This document shows, one piece after another, positions 42,897 to 62,146 of a DNA stretch of 64,000 bases; position 1 is the stretch's first letter, and every line of letters begins with the position of its first letter. Position numbers and translations under genes: made by a program. The stretch is from a phage. The notes beneath the pieces were generated by a model. The model searched no databases, was not told where the DNA came from, and was given only the letters and a program-made list of their open reading frames with translations. The DNA lies in sequence record PZ534511.1; one strand, given 5' to 3'.

Positions 42897-45233
42897 TTAC
42901 CAAAGGTCGGTAGACATGAAGTTGATATCTTTATTGTTCTCCCACTCAAGTTTTGCATCAAATATTTTGTTAAACTCACCCTCATCTATTGAAATCGTGA
43001 TTTTCCCATCACTGATCTCTAAAGGTAGCATTTCCATAGTTCTTAATTGAGAAGCAAAACCAGGGCCACCCGGCAACGGAAGAGTCCCGCCCGGTAAGGT
43101 GTCCAAAGGATTAACAAACCCGTTACCTCCCGATATGATATCTTTGCGAATCATATCGCTGATAGTATCCAGCTGCTGATTTCTTTCACTTAGTGGGTTG
43201 TAACGGTCATTAAATAATTCCCCGGCGCTTAGTATTGTACCGATAATGCCCAGCTTACCGAGCAGACCAACTTTGCCACCAGGTGTCTTGAGGCCACCTC
43301 CACCTTTTCCTGCCGGAGCTCCACCACCAGATCCTTCTGTAGTAGCGGCACCCGCTGCTCCAGCTGCACCCCTTAGAGAGTTAAGGAATTTAAAGGTTTT
43401 TACAAGCATAGATGCCATGACAAAACCTTTTGTTAGGGCGTTGACGACCAGCATGATGGCAGCAGCAAACCCTGCCCATTTAGCATAGCTAAAGGTGTCA
43501 TGAAGCTCTTCAGAATATTCCTTCGTCTTGGCTGTTATGAACCCCCATTTAATCCCCCATTCAAGGAAAAACATGCGGATCTTGACTATAGTGTTGTTTA
43601 GTTCACCAACTACCCAGTTAAGGCCTCTCACAAACCCGCTAACAAAATCACCAGAGGCATCCCACACAAATTGCAGAGTCTCACCCGTGCGGATCAGTGT
43701 ATAATAGAACTCTGTTAGTTCGTCAGACCAACGGGTGAACAGTTTCTGACGAGTCAGTTCGATGAAGGTTTTCAGTCTGTTTTCTGCCAGCACGTTAGAC
43801 TTCTGCATTCTTTCATAACCAGCTGCAGATGCCTCGTTCATGTACTTAGCCACATACTTCATGATCTTGGCTGTTTTAACCTCACCTTTCTTCATCATGT
43901 CCATGAACTGATCCATGGAGAGTTCAGAAAGACCAAAAGCCTCTTTGGTGGCCTTGATAAAAGGTTCGTATGCACCAGGCAATGCTTCAGCAAGTTGTTG
44001 CTTCAGTTCTTCGGACATTACTTGCCCTTTACCGAGCATTTGCTGGATTGCCATAATACCGCGCTGGTATTTTACCTCATCGGCACCATAAGCAGCAGCA
44101 TACTGGGAGTATGCAGAAAACAGCTCATGCACTTCCTGATTTGTCATCTGGTTTTTGGCGTTTACCGACATCTGGGCGTAACCTTGAAGACCAGATTTGA
44201 GATCAAAACCAAGACGCATAGCCTCTTGCTGGACAAACGCAACCTCACTGTTAGCTTTGTTTGGATCTCCAGTAACAGCAGTAAGAGCAGCACTTGCCCC
44301 CTCCATCATGTGACCGGATCTATTAACTGCAGCAAATCCAGAAAAAGCTGTATACGCAGCTGTTGCATTAATAACAGATCTACGTAAGTCTCTCATGGCA
44401 TCGCCTAGTGTAAGCGTTTGGCTGGTGGCGCTTTTAAACCCAGACTGCAGCGCTGACAGGTGGGCGTTAAAGGTTGACTTCTTCATCTCCCCGCGAGCAA
44501 ACCTGGACTCTAACTCTGAGTATCCTGGCAAGCTTCCACGGAATCCGGCCCCATACTTGGCAGAAAGTCTTATCGCGGAGTTGTAGAGGTGGGTTCTCCT
44601 TGCCTCACGATCCGACATAAGCCTATTATCCATACCAGCTTTACTGTCTCTTCTTAGCTGTCTATGATAACGATTCATGGCAGCGGTCTGGGCTTTCACA
44701 AGATTAGGATCTGAAGCCACTCCACCCATGTTCGGGTTGCCTGGAATATATCTGAAAGACTTGGCGTTAGCAAGAACTCTTGCCTTAGGTGCCTTATAAC
44801 CCCCATAGGATACTGGTGCAGATTTGGCAGCTTTTTTAGCCTCTTTAGCTTGCTGCTGGTAGAACTTACGCATCCTAGCCATCTCTGGGTTTTTGGCGGT
44901 AAGATTGCCTACAGCTTGCCTACGTCTTGCATTCTCCCTACGCTCTATTGCAGCCTTTACTGCAGCCTCTTTCTTAGCCTGAGCAACGCTCTCCCTGTGC
45001 AGTTTAGCATTTGCTTGAGATTGTTGTCTGGCAACACGTTGCATTGTCTGCTGAGTTTTAACCGCCACTGCCTGCCATCTACTCATGGGGTTGGCTGAGT
45101 TAAAATCCTCGCCCAGTTTCCTGAACTCCCTCCCAATACTGCGAATTTTCTCTACAGCTTTTTTGTAGGAGGAGTTCTCTATCTCAAAGCCAATCTTGTT
45201 GACTGTTGTGGCAACTATTTTGTTTGTAGCCAT
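42897..45233 (-). CDS. Tail tape measure protein
   Basis: 778 aa, follows chaperone pair; helical Ala/Lys/Gln-rich N-terminus; Gly-rich GAAGAAGAATTEGSGGG and hydrophobic segments. Confidence 0.65.
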   Translation of the reverse strand: MATNKIVATTVNKIGFEIENSSYKKAVEKIRSIGREFRKLGEDFNSANPMSRWQAVAVKTQQTMQRVARQQSQANAKLHRESVAQAKKEAAVKAAIERRENARRRQAVGNLTAKNPEMARMRKFYQQQAKEAKKAAKSAPVSYGGYKAPKARVLANAKSFRYIPGNPNMGGVASDPNLVKAQTAAMNRYHRQLRRDSKAGMDNRLMSDREARRTHLYNSAIRLSAKYGAGFRGSLPGYSELESRFARGEMKKSTFNAHLSALQSGFKSATSQTLTLGDAMRDLRRSVINATAAYTAFSGFAAVNRSGHMMEGASAALTAVTGDPNKANSEVAFVQQEAMRLGFDLKSGLQGYAQMSVNAKNQMTNQEVHELFSAYSQYAAAYGADEVKYQRGIMAIQQMLGKGQVMSEELKQQLAEALPGAYEPFIKATKEAFGLSELSMDQFMDMMKKGEVKTAKIMKYVAKYMNEASAAGYERMQKSNVLAENRLKTFIELTRQKLFTRWSDELTEFYYTLIRTGETLQFVWDASGDFVSGFVRGLNWVVGELNNTIVKIRMFFLEWGIKWGFITAKTKEYSEELHDTFSYAKWAGFAAAIMLVVNALTKGFVMASMLVKTFKFLNSLRGAAGAAGAATTEGSGGGAPAGKGGGGLKTPGGKVGLLGKLGIIGTILSAGELFNDRYNPLSERNQQLDTISDMIRKDIISGGNGFVNPLDTLPGGTLPLPGGPGFASQLRTMEMLPLEISDGKITISIDEGEFNKIFDAKLEWENNKDINFMSTDLW

Positions 45234-58782: not shown

Positions 58783-59208
58783 ACCCTCATCGAAGCAAAC
58801 CATGGTATACTCAAGCCCTTGATGGTTAAGCTTATCTTGTACATACTCCATGTGGCAGTATTTTACAACAGCTCCCTTTTTGCTTCTATCCCACTTGCCG
58901 GTGTTCGGATCAAACCGTGGAAAAATGAACTTATGATCCTTCTCTCTGAACTTTGGCTTAATGTTTTCAGGCAGATCACTATAAATAGCTACTGCTTTAG
59001 GCCATAGTCCACCCTCACCTTCCAACTGTGGGGTTGTTCTTCGGAACATAACCACAGAGCTGTGGGGGTCATCAATAATTTTAAGTGGCATCAATTGCAA
59101 GAGGAACGACTTGCCAGACCCTGCGGCACCGCCGATTACCAAAATATCTGCATCGTTTTCAAGGATCATCTTCTGCTTTTCAGAACACGGTCCGTAAATC
59201 TTAGACAT
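58780..59208 (-). CDS. terL: Terminase large subunit, exon 1 (ATPase N-terminal part)
   Basis: Walker A GGAAGSGKS; Walker B MVCFDE just before stop at 58780-58782, followed by intron P element. Confidence 0.75.
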   Translation of the reverse strand: MSKIYGPCSEKQKMILENDADILVIGGAAGSGKSFLLQLMPLKIIDDPHSSVVMFRRTTPQLEGEGGLWPKAVAIYSDLPENIKPKFREKDHKFIFPRFDPNTGKWDRSKKGAVVKYCHMEYVQDKLNHQGLEYTMVCFDEG

Positions 59209-59495
59209 TAACCTCTCTCCTTTGGAAACAGTGTTCTAATATAGTCTTGCAAAATGATCAATTTAGCTCTATCATTGCTACAAGACAGATTATTATCCCT
59301 CATAATGCCAGAATTCACTGCATCTGGCGCACCTTTCTTCAAAGGCATAGCTTTAGCAGGTGGTTTCATGGCACCTTCCGGGGGTTTAACAATCAACCTT
59401 CCTACATCAGGAGGGTCAATCTTGTATTCTCTCTCAACGCTGGTTGCACACCCACATAATAACAAGCACACAATAAACAGTGCAGCAACTCTCAT
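59208..59495 (-). CDS. Outer-membrane spanin (o-spanin, Rz1-like lipoprotein)
   Basis: Signal peptide with lipobox-like LLLCGC; Pro-rich mature region; overlaps i-spanin by 4 nt. Confidence 0.55.
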   Translation of the reverse strand: MRVAALFIVCLLLCGCATSVEREYKIDPPDVGRLIVKPPEGAMKPPAKAMPLKKGAPDAVNSGIMRDNNLSCSNDRAKLIILQDYIRTLFPKERG

Positions 59496-59900: not shown

Positions 59901-59939
59901 CAGAAACGAAAAAACCCCGCAGCTATGCAGCTAACGGGG
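59901..59939 (-). terminator. Rho-independent terminator
   Basis: CCCCG...CGGGG stem enclosing CAGCTATGCAGCTG, then TTTTTTCGTTTC. Confidence 0.45.
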
Positions 59940-59995: not shown

Positions 59996-60265
59996 TTATC
60001 GAGGCACTCGGTGGATGATTCTAACAGTAACTGCATTTTCATTCATCAAGTATGCATCTACATCTCTGTAAATATAAAACTTCTGCTCACTATCAACAAC
60101 ACAAGCTACTGCCCCTTCAGAGTTGTCTTCAAAAAAGACCACCACTGCATCGCAGCTGAGTTCATGATATGACTCTCGAAGATTTACAGCCAGAGGATTG
60201 AAATCGTCACGAAAATCTACAGTATGGGTTGGATTTACACGCTCTACAATTTTAAGTGTATACAT
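59996..60265 (-). CDS. Hypothetical protein (89 aa)
   Basis: Track ORF 59996..60355 would overlap tRNA-Pro; start set at internal ATG 60265 after AAGGAA. Confidence 0.45.
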   Translation of the reverse strand: MYTLKIVERVNPTHTVDFRDDFNPLAVNLRESYHELSCDAVVVFFEDNSEGAVACVVDSEQKFYIYRDVDAYLMNENAVTVRIIHRVPR

Positions 60266-60311: not shown

Positions 60312-60388
60312 TGGTCTCCACGGAGTGATTCGAACACTCGACCTCCTGATCCCAAATCAGGCGCTCTACCAAGCTGAGCTACGCGGAG
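60312..60388 (-). tRNA. tRNA-Pro (anticodon UGG)
   Basis: Hand-folded cloverleaf: 7-bp acceptor CUCCGCG/CGUGGAG, T-loop GUUCGAAUC, anticodon loop UUUGGGA, encoded CCA. Confidence 0.7.
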
Positions 60389-60399
60389 TATTTATTATT

Positions 60400-60474
60400 T
60401 GGTGGCCCTGGGTGGAATTGAACCACCGTCTGGCGATTATGAGTCGCTTGCTTGAACCTTCCAGCTACAGGGCC
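60400..60474 (-). tRNA. tRNA-Met or Ile2 (anticodon CAU)
   Basis: Acceptor GGCCCUG/CAGGGCC, anticodon loop CUCAUAA, T-arm GGUGG-UUCAAUU-CCACC, encoded CCA. Confidence 0.65.
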
Positions 60475-60475
60475 A

Positions 60476-60551
60476 TGGTGCTGATAGCAGGACTCGAACC
60501 TGCAACCTATTGATTACAAATCAATTGCACTACCAATTGTGCTACATCAGC
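60476..60551 (-). tRNA. tRNA-Thr (anticodon UGU)
   Basis: Acceptor GCUGAUG, D-arm GCAC-AAUUGGUA-GUGC, anticodon loop UUUGUAA, T-loop UUCGAGU, CCA. Confidence 0.7.
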
Positions 60552-60556
60552 AAAAA

Positions 60557-60655
60557 GGTGCTAGGTGATGGAATCGAACCACCTATGTATTCAACGACTA
60601 CCTCGTCTATTTTCAGGATTAAAAATCCTCGCCCTTGCCAAAGGGCTTACCTAGC
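60557..60655 (-). tRNA. Atypical tRNA-like gene (about 99 nt; possible UUU anticodon; about 30-nt variable region)
   Basis: Perfect acceptor GCUAGGU/ACCUAGC, D-arm GCCC-UUUGGCAA-GGGC, T-arm GGUGG-UUCGAUU-CCAUC, but anticodon arm non-canonical and extra hairpin ACGAGGUAGUCGU; 3' CC only. Confidence 0.4.
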
Positions 60656-60753
60656 TCAGTATGTTGACCATGTTGCTAGTCGGCGATGACGACTGTAACA
60701 TTTGATAATCCGGTTCTGCTTCCGGCTTTCGCTTAATTACAAGGTCAACAATA

Positions 60754-60844
60754 TGGCTGAGGGTAATGGAATCGAACCATCATCGAGTCATCCTCAACGG
60801 GACGGTTTTCAAGACCGCTTGAGCACCATTGCTCCCTACCCTCA
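60754..60844 (-). tRNA. tRNA-Ser (anticodon UGA), long variable arm
   Basis: Acceptor UGAGGGU/ACCCUCA, anticodon loop CUUGAAA, long variable arm, T-loop UUCGAUU, CCA. Confidence 0.65.
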
Positions 60845-60958
60845 TTTATAAACAATACTGATAATGACACTGATTTTCGAGCAGTTAGTGACTAGTATAA
60901 ACGACGATAAATATCAATGCCATTATCTGTATGATTTATGCATTTAAAAATGTAAATT

Positions 60959-61045
60959 TGGTGGGGAGTGGTGGAGTCGAACCACCCGAGTCGCAATGAC
61001 AATAGATTTACAGTCTACACCGCTACCTCTACGGGATAACTCCCC
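60959..61045 (-). tRNA. tRNA-Tyr (anticodon GUA), long variable arm
   Basis: Acceptor GGGGAGU/ACUCCCC, anticodon loop CUGUAAA, T-arm GGUGG-UUCGACU-CCACC, CCA. Confidence 0.65.
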
Positions 61046-61049
61046 AATT

Positions 61050-61124
61050 TGGCACCCCGTACTGGACTCGAACCAGTGTCAACGGCTTAGAAGGCCGCTG
61101 CTTTATCCACTAAGCTAACAGGGC
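61050..61124 (-). tRNA. tRNA-Arg (anticodon UCU)
   Basis: Acceptor GCCCUGU/ACGGGGU (G-U pairs), D-arm GCUU-AGUGGAUAA-AGC, anticodon loop CUUCUAA, T-loop UUCGAGU, CCA. Confidence 0.65.
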
Positions 61125-61182
61125 ACTGGGTGGCTTTCTTTTACACCTTAGCCGCCAGAAAAGGTGGGAGACCATGTTTACA

Positions 61183-61211
61183 ATATTACACTGTTAAGCA
61201 AAGTTTGTCAA
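61183..61211 (-). promoter_or_regulatory. Sigma70-like promoter (TTGACA-17-TAATAT) for tRNA cluster
   Basis: About 60 nt upstream of tRNA-Arg. Confidence 0.45.
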
Positions 61212-61903: not shown

Positions 61904-62146
61904 TCATTGTAAAGCACAAATAAATAAAACATACTTAATTTGTTTGTTATCAGGCTCAGGGTAGAAGTAGAAGATCTTGCTATCACCGATCTGAACACCA
62001 CCATCCCAACAGCATAGCCCATAACCCGTATTCATACAAGCTAAGTCGTTGGCAAAATCTATTGCATCATCCAGTGCACGAAATTCACCTTCATCTTCTA
62101 AATAATCCTCATTCATGGAACGAAAAACGAGCTTAACCTTAAACAT
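61904..62146 (-). CDS. Hypothetical protein
   Basis: Track ORF, 80 aa. Confidence 0.4.
   Translation of the reverse strand: MFKVKLVFRSMNEDYLEDEGEFRALDDAIDFANDLACMNTGYGLCCWDGGVQIGDSKIFYFYPEPDNKQIKYVLFICALQ

Follow-up and report, generated by a model that had tools for sequence, protein, structure and literature searches.

A tRNA gene cluster of an rV5-like phage with predicted codon-supplementing tRNAs and a conserved tRNA-shaped RNA that may be a non-decoding mimic

Introduction

Transfer RNAs (tRNAs) are now seen as a main battleground between phages and bacterial immunity. The described system closest to the present one is the tRNA gene cluster of phage rV5, whose genome paper reported six tRNAs (Arg, Tyr, Thr, 'Met', Pro, and Ser), compared the tRNA-matched codons between rV5 and Escherichia coli O157, and listed the predicted promoter of the cluster in its Table S4 under the name 'PtRNA' (PMC3606486). 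Other systems that invite comparison are the tRNA region of phage T4, which contains eight tRNAs plus the stable RNAs C and D, and the nuclease-resistant tRNAs of phage T5. The PARIS nuclease AriB cuts the Lys(UUU), Thr(UGU), and Asn(GUU) tRNAs of E. coli at U36AAUC/A41 (the slash marks the cut), with a second contact at U16 (PMC11464382, PMC12409363), and variants of tRNA-Lys, tRNA-Thr, and tRNA-Asn carried by T5 neutralise PARIS (PMC11464382; PMC12409363). In this study, the cluster corresponding to that of rV5 was analysed in the phage sequence record PZ534511.1. The whole stretch, here referred to as the window, is 64,000 nucleotides (nt) long, and the cluster with its predicted promoter occupies positions 60,312 to 61,211 on the minus strand.

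Besides six canonical tRNA genes, the cluster holds a seventh, tRNA-shaped gene, here called X, and two structured elements in its spacers, called Y and Z. The locus as a whole is read as a tRNA operon of an rV5-like myovirus (genus Vequintavirus) in which codon-supplementing tRNAs are accompanied by the tRNA mimic X. We put the probability of this reading at about 85%; the role of X, taken by itself, is proposed more tentatively below.

Results

Seven genes in a published cluster

ARAGORN returned exactly seven genes in the window, all on the minus strand and all at the coordinates given in a preliminary description made from the sequence alone, which had proposed seven minus-strand tRNA or tRNA-like genes behind a consensus promoter; across the 64 kb, no further tRNA gene was called outside this cluster. 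The finding is real and was correctly interpreted. All of the proposed genes were called by ARAGORN (7/7), and six of them by Rfam at its cutoff, with tRNA-Ser lying below. These six are also the only RNA matches that Rfam gave at gathering thresholds in the whole window (tRNA family RF00005, cutoff 29 bits; scores in Table 2). The six ordinary genes carry the sequence features of canonical elongator tRNAs (ARAGORN 6/6, Rfam cutoff 5/6), and CCA is encoded in each of them (6/6). Read from Pro to Arg, the intergenic gaps are 11, 1, 5, 98, 114, and 4 nt.

The tRNA-Ser gene is seen in Rfam only as a sub-threshold tRNA-Sec match (40.2 bits), and its class-II cloverleaf shows compensatory changes in 18 of 28 pairs in an alignment of eight phage Ser(UGA) genes. 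An identity as tRNA-Sec (RF01852, cutoff 47 bits) was rejected for tRNA-Ser as well as for tRNA-Tyr, which scored 33.7 bits. As read from the sequence, the discriminators fit the assigned identities, i.e., G73 in Ser, A73 in Tyr, Thr, Ile, and Pro, and the pair C1:G72 in Pro. The tRNA-Pro gene is 85% identical to that of T4.

Escherichia phage APECc02 and Shigella phage CM1 match the 1.1-kb region at 100% identity, and many other rV5-like phages (genus Vequintavirus) do so at 98.5-99.4%; at least 80% of the region is found in 114 phage records. Since the rV5 paper holds the six tRNAs, the codon argument, and PtRNA, the tRNA cluster, its promoter prediction, and its codon rationale are already published in that 2013 description. 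In Table S3 of the paper (Additional file 3), the tRNA names are reversed relative to the coordinates, e.g., the gene at 61976-62052 that is called Arg is Pro (PMC3606486). Furthermore, 18 or 19 unannotated 'Campylobacter phage' records (MG0656xx, 128-143 kb) are 97-100% identical to the rV5-like region; their host label is doubtful, possibly through contamination or mislabelling.

The CAU gene as a predicted AUA reader

The gene with anticodon CAU, which ARAGORN names 'Met', had been left as Met/Ile in the preliminary description; of these two identities the Ile part stood and the Met part did not. An alignment was made with T4 tRNA-Ile and one tRNA-Ile(CAU) gene of E. coli. The E. coli gene has the same acceptor 5' strand, GGCCCU, and hence the same pairs C4:G69 and C5:G68, as well as A73 and an identical anticodon stem-loop (GCGACUCAUAAUCGC). 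Full-length matches of 76-82% identity are present in 5345 of 5426 complete E. coli genomes, at a median of two places per genome, and all of those among the matches listed are annotated as tRNA-Ile. It was reportedly found by Ikeuchi and colleagues in 2005 that TilS tells tRNA-Ile2 from tRNA-Met by the acceptor pairs C4:G69 and C5:G68. Because the pairs of the phage gene are these determinants, the gene would be an ileX-type tRNA-Ile2, not a tRNA-Met, and should read AUA after lysidine modification. This reassignment removes the puzzle of the 'seemingly unwarranted tRNA-Met' in the rV5 paper (PMC3606486) and strengthens the case for codon compensation.

Codon usage and the retained tRNA genes

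For a comparison of codon usage, 50 long open reading frames (ORFs) of the window (17,171 codons) were set against 39 long ORFs (13,523 codons) from a 50-kb stretch of E. coli DNA; Table 1 gives each codon's share among the codons of its amino acid. The codons AGA, AUA, and ACA are 4-14 times commoner in the window ORFs than in the E. coli sample. The preliminary description had suggested, as an inference, that the anticodons UCU, UGA, and UGU serve codons that are often rare in enteric-type hosts; this link is supported by the higher shares of AGA, ACA/ACU, and UCA/UCU in the phage. Transfer RNAs with U34 modified as in E. coli read codons ending in U, A, and G, and if the same modification is made on the phage tRNAs, the set would cover most of the most enriched codons. 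The six canonical tRNAs would then add decoding capacity for codons that the phage overuses, namely AGA/AGG and AUA and, via U34 wobble, ACA/ACU, CCA/CCU, and UCA/UCU. The codon-compensation link is supported by these data, and the published figures for rV5 versus O157 show the same direction (PMC3606486).

Table 1. Codon usage in the window ORFs and in the E. coli sample, as share of the codons of each amino acid
Codon	Amino acid	Phage	E. coli
AGA	Arg	36%	2%
AGG	Arg	17%	1%
AUA	Ile	23%	5%
ACA	Thr	35%	11.5%
ACU	Thr	30%	14%
CCU	Pro	48%	14%
CCA	Pro	27%	19%
UCU	Ser	34%	13%
UCA	Ser	16%	9.5%
UAC	Tyr	47.5%	40%

Natural deletion variants of the cluster were found in V18 and JES2013, two separate Vequintavirus species. 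In each of them the 5' part of tRNA-Tyr is joined to the 3' part of X in a chimera that ARAGORN does not call; tRNA-Ser, the spacers with Y and Z, and the 5' half of X have been lost. Arg, Thr, and Ile2 are retained in both species, and Pro also in JES2013; the three genes kept in both read the three most skewed codons, AGA, ACA, and AUA.

X belongs to a conserved family of tRNA-shaped RNAs

What the preliminary description had called an atypical tRNA-like gene proved to be a member of a real, conserved family. Relatives of X were found by blast in five genera of the Vequintavirinae (Vequintavirus, Avunavirus, Seunavirus, Mydovirus, and Henunavirus). Outside this subfamily, blast gave relatives in Justusliebigvirus (Stephanstirmvirinae) and an N4-like Ithacavirus (Schitoviridae). 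X is without exception part of a tRNA cluster, mostly at 2-6 nt from a neighbouring tRNA, and is almost never annotated. In most lineages examined its neighbour is tRNA-Thr(UGU) or tRNA-Asn(GUU), and in Justusliebigvirus it follows tRNA-Leu.

Every homologue, when folded alone, gave the same four-arm cloverleaf with a long variable arm. In an alignment of 14 sequences, 99% of the cells are paired and 11 of 22 pairs are changed on both sides, with slid controls coming nowhere near these values. Covariation is present in all four helices, and the tertiary pair 19:56 between the D-loop and the T-loop switches as a unit (G:C in nine sequences, U:A in five). The acceptor, D, and T helices and the contact between the D-loop and the T-loop are thus those of a tRNA. 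The core has invariant but unusual residues, with A8, U14, and U15 replacing U8, A14, and R15. The junction sequences GAAAAU and AAUACAUAGG are nearly invariant. The variable arm that they enclose has at least four unrelated versions, and these are shuffled among the body types. In most members the end is U73-CCA, and in those of the rV5 type it is A73 followed by CC and a U-run.

A covariance model (R1) built from the same alignment gave family members 75-121 bits, compared with at most 26.5 bits for ordinary tRNAs (22 loci), and found one copy of X per phage. Between rV5-like phages and Av-05, X is 91% identical and the Thr, Arg, Tyr, and Ser genes next to it are 74-76% identical; in the comparison with Seunavirus the corresponding values are 70-74% and 57-71%. 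Because of the covariation and of a conservation higher than that of the tRNAs beside it, X is, on this comparative evidence, a selected L-shaped RNA of a sharply delimited family and not a pseudogene. A blastn search of 5426 E. coli genomes gave no match to X, and in 185,579 species genomes (one each) and a metagenome collection the pattern matches were at chance level and all failed the X model. X has no homology to the T4 RNAs C and D (R1 without match, pairwise identity at background). Two loci from the first viral scan (L010 and L013) were discarded as chance matches, and a degenerate copy in 'Salmonella phage 21' (13.9 bits) was left out of the analysis. A literature search for a suppressor or tRNA-like RNA in Vequintavirinae gave no paper.

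A short and variable anticodon arm

The anticodon arm of X is 15-16 nt long in all members, compared with 17 nt in canonical tRNAs. Its helix is kept by compensatory changes (AGGAU/AUCCU, AGGUC/GACCU, GGGC/GCCC, AGGC/GCCU), and the loop, of 5-7 nt, occurs in seven sequences, so that X shows neither the 17-nt arm nor the conserved anticodon of a decoding tRNA. The loops are UUUUA in the rV5 type, UUAUA in Av-05, CAUCCA in Seunavirus and Mydovirus, CAGCCA in 4MG, CCUCCA in the IMG/VR relative L023, CCUCAA in Seunavirus NINP13076, and CAUCAAA in Henunavirus, Ithacavirus, and Justusliebigvirus. The conserved arm AGGxx/xxCCU covaries and is also favoured by the minimum-free-energy fold. A D stem of 6 bp is possible, but its extra pairs never vary.

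Several assignments were rejected. The fold that ARAGORN proposes for X (stem AUUUU/AAAAU, 8-nt loop, four-base anticodon AUCC) has a stem that is absent in the Seunavirus, Henunavirus, and N4-like homologues. A tRNA-Sec, which has 8/5 helices, the anticodon UCA, and a 6-bp D stem with a 4-nt loop, was dismissed: the helices of X are 7/5, and UCA is confined to some lineages, where it comes with A33. For a suppressor tRNA ('tRNA-TERM'), the window loop gives UUU, UCA is found only in the CAUCAAA type with A33, and the Seunavirus-type loops have 6 nt. Database labels for the seventh gene are inconsistent (tRNA-Lys, tRNA-TERM, tRNA-OTHER, Pseudo, '???(atcc)', or no annotation), and the comparative analysis gives no fixed decoder.

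With an anticodon arm too short and too variable for a fixed decoding role, X would most likely work by virtue of its tRNA shape, engaging a tRNA-binding factor as ligand or decoy, and not as a codon reader. That X is a non-decoding tRNA mimic is offered tentatively, at a little under even odds; the probability that falls outside this role and that of a decoder specific to each lineage is left to roles that we do not name.

Structured RNAs in the spacers and beyond

The closing helix of Y has an entirely different sequence in each lineage and is always paired; ten pairs of Y show compensatory changes. This outer helix, GUUGACC/GGUCAAC in the window, is AGGAUC/GAUCCU in L009, a diverged relative from IMG/VR, and GUUGUGCUG/CAGCACAAC in lambda, and it is replaced by helices of 14 bp in D6 and ST1UNAM. 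One inner hairpin covaries as well (GUCG/CGAC versus GGCG/CGCC), and the U.G pairs of the closing helix fit only the tRNA-sense or late-transcript strand. A core of ~70 nt is 87% identical to lambda 44866-44934 (L070:801-869), an unannotated place between orf-64 and gene S in the leader of the late operon, and about 80% identical to a sequence directly after tRNA-Ser(UGA) in D6 (L071:1287-1375). Together, tRNA-Ser and Y are about 80% identical to the Ser(UGA)+Y module of this P1-like phage. In the D6 record (L071:1200-1286), the tRNA genes are annotated on the strand opposite to that given by ARAGORN and by homology with the window. The Y core is also present in a Salmonella siphovirus and in 426 of the 5426 E. 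coli genomes, at 332 chromosomal and 121 plasmid places, and it is never annotated.

Z is restricted to Vequintavirus. Two G.U pairs in its stem make it work on the tRNA-sense strand only; relative to the window, L009 has one compensatory change (C:G to U:A) and one change of G.U to G:C, and the second diverged IMG/VR relative, L008, has G.U changed to A:U. A weak promoter-like site (ATGGCA-18-TATACT, 60923-60894) overlaps Z. Rfam contains no match for Y or Z, and at blast level no homologue of either was found in the loci of Av-05, Seunavirus, and Mydovirus. We infer that Z may be a processing site; Y and Z might both be processing sites or stable by-product RNAs like the T4 species 1 and 2.

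In Seunavirus, Mydovirus, and Henunavirus, a gap of ~185 nt between X and tRNA-Leu(UAA) has a closing helix of about 20 bp, and 15 of its 35 predicted pairs show compensatory changes. In some records, small 'hypothetical protein' coding sequences are placed over this gap or over X. The gap looks like another undescribed structured RNA.

Promoter, transcription unit, and flanking genes

The sequence TTGACA-17-TAATAT proposed in the preliminary description is present upstream of the first tRNA gene, with TTGACA at 61211-61206 and TAATAT at 61188-61183. It has the hexamers, a spacer within the 16-18 nt range, and the upstream placement of a sigma-70-type promoter. The upstream ORF and its stop codon are followed by a gap, and the site falls within this gap, at a distance of 58 nt from tRNA-Arg. 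In the region, ten sites with 10/12 consensus matches were observed, compared with 6.9 +/- 2.5 in shuffles, so that a match of this quality is in itself nothing rare. L008, L009, V18, and JES2013 have both hexamers unchanged, whereas the nearby spacer sequence changes. Position, intact hexamers in diverged relatives, and the independent published prediction support its reading as a putative promoter. The leader between it and the first tRNA has no significant structure (folding z = +0.86). Further upstream, this strand has another three TTGACA/TTTACA-17 sites, which is what an early region of small ORFs would be expected to show.

Host RNA polymerase would most likely start at this promoter and produce one precursor RNA with the order Arg(UCU), Tyr(GUA), Z, Ser(UGA), Y, X, Thr(UGU), Ile2(CAU), and Pro(UGG), probably continuing into a small ORF downstream. 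From this precursor, the tRNAs would be released by host enzymes, i.e., RNase P at the 5' ends and endo- and exonucleases at the 3' ends, and then presumably aminoacylated. Co-transcription and RNase P processing are proposed on the basis of the anatomy of the locus and the precedent of T4.

The small ORF at 59996-60265 may be co-transcribed with the tRNAs; the consensus scan gave no terminator-like site between tRNA-Pro and this ORF. The first terminator-like site downstream of the cluster and outside any gene is the hairpin at 59930-59917, and beyond it lie two Rz-like spanin genes (PHROG matches). As clues to function, the flanking ORFs gave only PHROGs of unknown function and the Rz-like spanins. 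The 95-amino-acid (aa) ORF at 59208-59495 (minus strand) is called 'putative large terminase subunit' in APECc02 and ime; as it matches an Rz-like spanin PHROG (1.3e-22) and adjoins the other spanin gene, the terminase name is probably an annotation error. Within X of the rV5 type, the T arm and the 3' acceptor strand (60562-60585, minus strand) can form an alternative 8-bp hairpin followed by CCUUUUU. This hairpin is terminator-like, is located just before tRNA-Thr, and is not conserved in other lineages.

Table 2. Coordinates of the features in the window and of related features in other loci (L numbers)
Feature	Position	Strand	Evidence and remarks
Predicted sigma-70-type promoter TTGACA-17-TAATAT ('PtRNA')	61183..61211	-	sequence; consensus scan 10/12
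Leader, promoter to first tRNA	61125..61182	-	98-100% conserved in rV5-like relatives
tRNA-Arg (UCU), reads AGA/AGG	61050..61124	-	ARAGORN; Rfam 67.8 bits; CCA encoded
tRNA-Tyr (GUA), class II, A73	60959..61045	-	ARAGORN; Rfam 29.9 bits, just above cutoff; CCA encoded
Z, 15-bp hairpin in Tyr-Ser spacer 60845-60958	60860..60927	-	spacer folding z = -4.0
tRNA-Ser (UGA), class II, G73	60754..60844	-	ARAGORN; below Rfam tRNA cutoff; CCA encoded
Y, three-way-junction RNA of ~85 nt (closing helix and two hairpins) in Ser-X spacer 60656-60753	60663..60749	-	spacer folding z = -2.6
X, tRNA-shaped RNA, class-II-like long variable arm, short anticodon arm, A73, only CC encoded	60557..60655	-	ARAGORN 'tRNA-???'; Rfam 35.5 bits
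tRNA-Thr (UGU)	60476..60551	-	ARAGORN; Rfam 76.2 bits; CCA encoded
tRNA-Ile2 (CAU, ileX type; predicted)	60400..60474	-	ARAGORN 'Met'; Rfam 60.0 bits
tRNA-Pro (UGG), C1:G72, A73	60312..60388	-	ARAGORN; Rfam 66.4 bits
Small ORF, 89 aa, phrog_8729 (unknown function)	59996..60265	-	ORF list; phage ime annotation; PHROG match 8e-44
Terminator-like hairpin CTGCATAGCTGCGG, then T-run GGTTTTTTCG	59917..59930	-	consensus scan
tRNA-Tyr(5')/X(3') chimera	L068:1451-1547 (V18); L069:1311-1532 (JES2013)		recombination between tRNA genes
Further Y copy	L072:701-767		
X-to-Leu gap	L003:2606-2796; L004:2606-2795; L014:1308-1489; L016:1297-1487; L017:1298-1488; L020:1297-1478		

Discussion

Considered as a tRNA cluster, the locus offers nothing new besides the change of 'tRNA-Met' to an AUA-reading tRNA-Ile2. 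What goes beyond the 2013 description of rV5 is this reassignment, the horizontally spread family of X, which has no fixed anticodon, and Y, which is common to the phage and lambda. Taken together, it is conceivable, though we would not yet bet on it, that X represents an undescribed phage-borne mimic family that has moved horizontally among Vequintavirinae, Stephanstirmvirinae, and N4-like Schitoviridae and acts on a host factor that binds tRNA, such as a defence nuclease or toxin, as its decoy or ligand, with Y beside it shared with lambda, P1-like phage-plasmids, and prophages (~8% of complete E. coli genomes). If X is indeed a dedicated mimic in several phage families, it would be a candidate for a new counter-defence or regulatory RNA, and model phages for X are present in the BASEL collection.

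Several points weigh against the reading of the locus as an operon of codon-supplementing tRNAs plus a mimic. All seven products are known here from sequence alone, the E. coli codon reference is a single 50-kb sample, and the promoter is known as a consensus match only, with a local match count that does not exceed that expected from shuffles. As V18 and JES2013 are viable although Tyr, Ser, and X are missing or disrupted in them, growth on the isolation hosts does not depend on intact copies of these three. The gene content expected under codon compensation is also the one expected if host tRNAs destroyed by defence nucleases are replaced, so that the two are not told apart here. For X in particular, opening of the closing U:A pair in the rV5 type yields the loop UUUUUAA (U33, UUU, A37) on a 4-bp stem, and the discriminator A73 is found in the rV5-like lineage only, which leaves some probability for a decoding role in rV5-like phages.

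In a first alternative, the cluster serves mainly counter-defence, with phage tRNAs taking the place of host tRNAs that anticodon nucleases cut or that run low in the infected cell, and with codon bias being secondary; X(UUU) and the adjacent Thr(UGU) would then answer nucleases such as AriB of PARIS. The T5 variants provide the precedent, tRNA-Lys(UUU) is the preferred target of a bacterial Schlafen nuclease (PMC13056530), and the P1-like phage D6 carries Asn, Thr, and the Ser+Y module. The position of X beside Thr(UGU) or Asn(GUU) genes, which holds in most lineages examined but not in Justusliebigvirus with its tRNA-Leu, is a suggestive hint in the same direction. However, the window tRNA-Thr keeps both the AriB site of E. 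coli (U36AAUC/A41) and U16-U17, and it is therefore not an evident escape variant; compared with the published AriB determinants, a signature of PARIS escape is absent from it. In X of the rV5 type the sequence is UAAUCC, as at the site in tRNA-Asn, which is cut weakly, and the strong codon skew already explains the anticodon set. A cluster devoted mainly to counter-defence is considered rather unlikely.

A second alternative takes X for a working decoder whose anticodon differs by lineage, being a class-II-bodied tRNA-Lys(UUU) in rV5-like phages, a UAU tRNA in Av-05, and, in Henunavirus, Ithacavirus, and Justusliebigvirus, a UCA tRNA that suppresses opal codons. The identity of E. coli tRNA-Lys lies in the anticodon UUU and A73; the opened loop and A73 of the rV5 type fit it, which accounts for the tRNA-Lys label in several records, as others label X tRNA-TERM. 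Lys codons are about 1.5 times commoner in the phage, and the loop CAUCAAA of Erwinia/UTK0002/EmilieFrey differs from the UGA-reading CUUCAAA at position 33 only. Yet it is at this position that the CAUCAAA type has A33 and not the near-universal U33. The arm is 1-2 nt short of the canonical length in every member, the loop has 6 nt in Seunavirus and Mydovirus members, and A8, U14, and U15 stand in place of the canonical core residues. The putative anticodon is UUU in the rV5 type and UAU in Av-05 although the bodies are 91% identical, and ARAGORN rejects every X member outside the rV5 type. AAA itself is not enriched in the phage (58% of Lys codons versus 80% in the host), and EmilieFrey has a normal tRNA-Lys(UUU) besides X. 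Such a decoder is unlikely, and X as a non-decoding mimic is kept as the preferred, if tentative, reading.

That X is a decaying tRNA pseudogene and the spacers meaningless leftovers of rearrangement is highly improbable: one record does label the tRNA-Tyr of the cluster 'tRNA-Pseudo', several leave X without annotation, X lacks a full CCA here, and recombination between tRNA genes does occur in the cluster (the Tyr-X chimeras), but against this stand the compensatory changes in half of the pairs of X, including the tertiary pair, with nearly all cells paired, its conservation above that of the true tRNAs beside it, its spread to three unrelated phage families, the maintenance of the Y and Z helices through compensatory changes, and the identity of 70-75% among the aligned X sequences, which disfavours a recent copy.

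Compared with the known systems, the cluster is the same locus as that of rV5 (Kropinski et al. 2013, PMC3606486), with 99-100% identity, the same six tRNAs, promoter, and codon rationale; it differs in that the CAU tRNA, 'Met' in the paper, is here assigned as a predicted ileX-type tRNA-Ile2, and X, Y, and Z are not reported there (PMC3606486). The T4 region likewise has packed, co-oriented Arg(UCU), Ile(CAU), Thr(UGU), Ser(UGA), and Pro(UGG) genes with non-tRNA RNAs of unknown function interspersed among them, but the tRNAs other than Pro are only about 70% alike, several T4 genes lack the CCA encoded in all six canonical genes here, and rnaC and rnaD match neither the X model nor the Y and Z sequences. 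With the nuclease-resistant tRNA-Lys, tRNA-Thr, and tRNA-Asn of T5, the cluster has in common the isoacceptor classes (Thr-UGU and a UUU-looped molecule), the clustering, and the dispensability in the laboratory. In contrast to T5, the window tRNA-Thr keeps the sensitive E. coli sequence at the mapped determinants, and X is not a point-mutated tRNA-Lys but a differently built molecule with relatives that have no UUU. The CAU gene resembles E. coli tRNA-Ile2 (ileX/ileY) in the acceptor strand and its two pairs, the anticodon stem-loop, and A73; the two are 76-82% identical overall, with differences in the D arm and the T stem, and modification of the phage tRNA by TilS is assumed.

Finally, X was considered beside non-decoding mimics (the tRNA-like domain of tmRNA, the YrlA Y-RNA module, mascRNA) and odd class-II tRNAs (tRNA-Sec, allo-tRNAs). 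For YrlA, mascRNA, and permuted tmRNA, Rfam gave only weak, chance-level matches on the neighbouring tRNAs and none on X. X differs from these mimics and tRNAs by its 7/5 acceptor/T architecture, which is neither 8/5 nor 9/3, and by having no mRNA-like or Ro-binding module and no G3:U70. What X presumably shares with them is the elbow of acceptor and T-arm, the canonical contacts between T-loop and D-loop, a long extra arm, and an anticodon arm that is reduced or altered.

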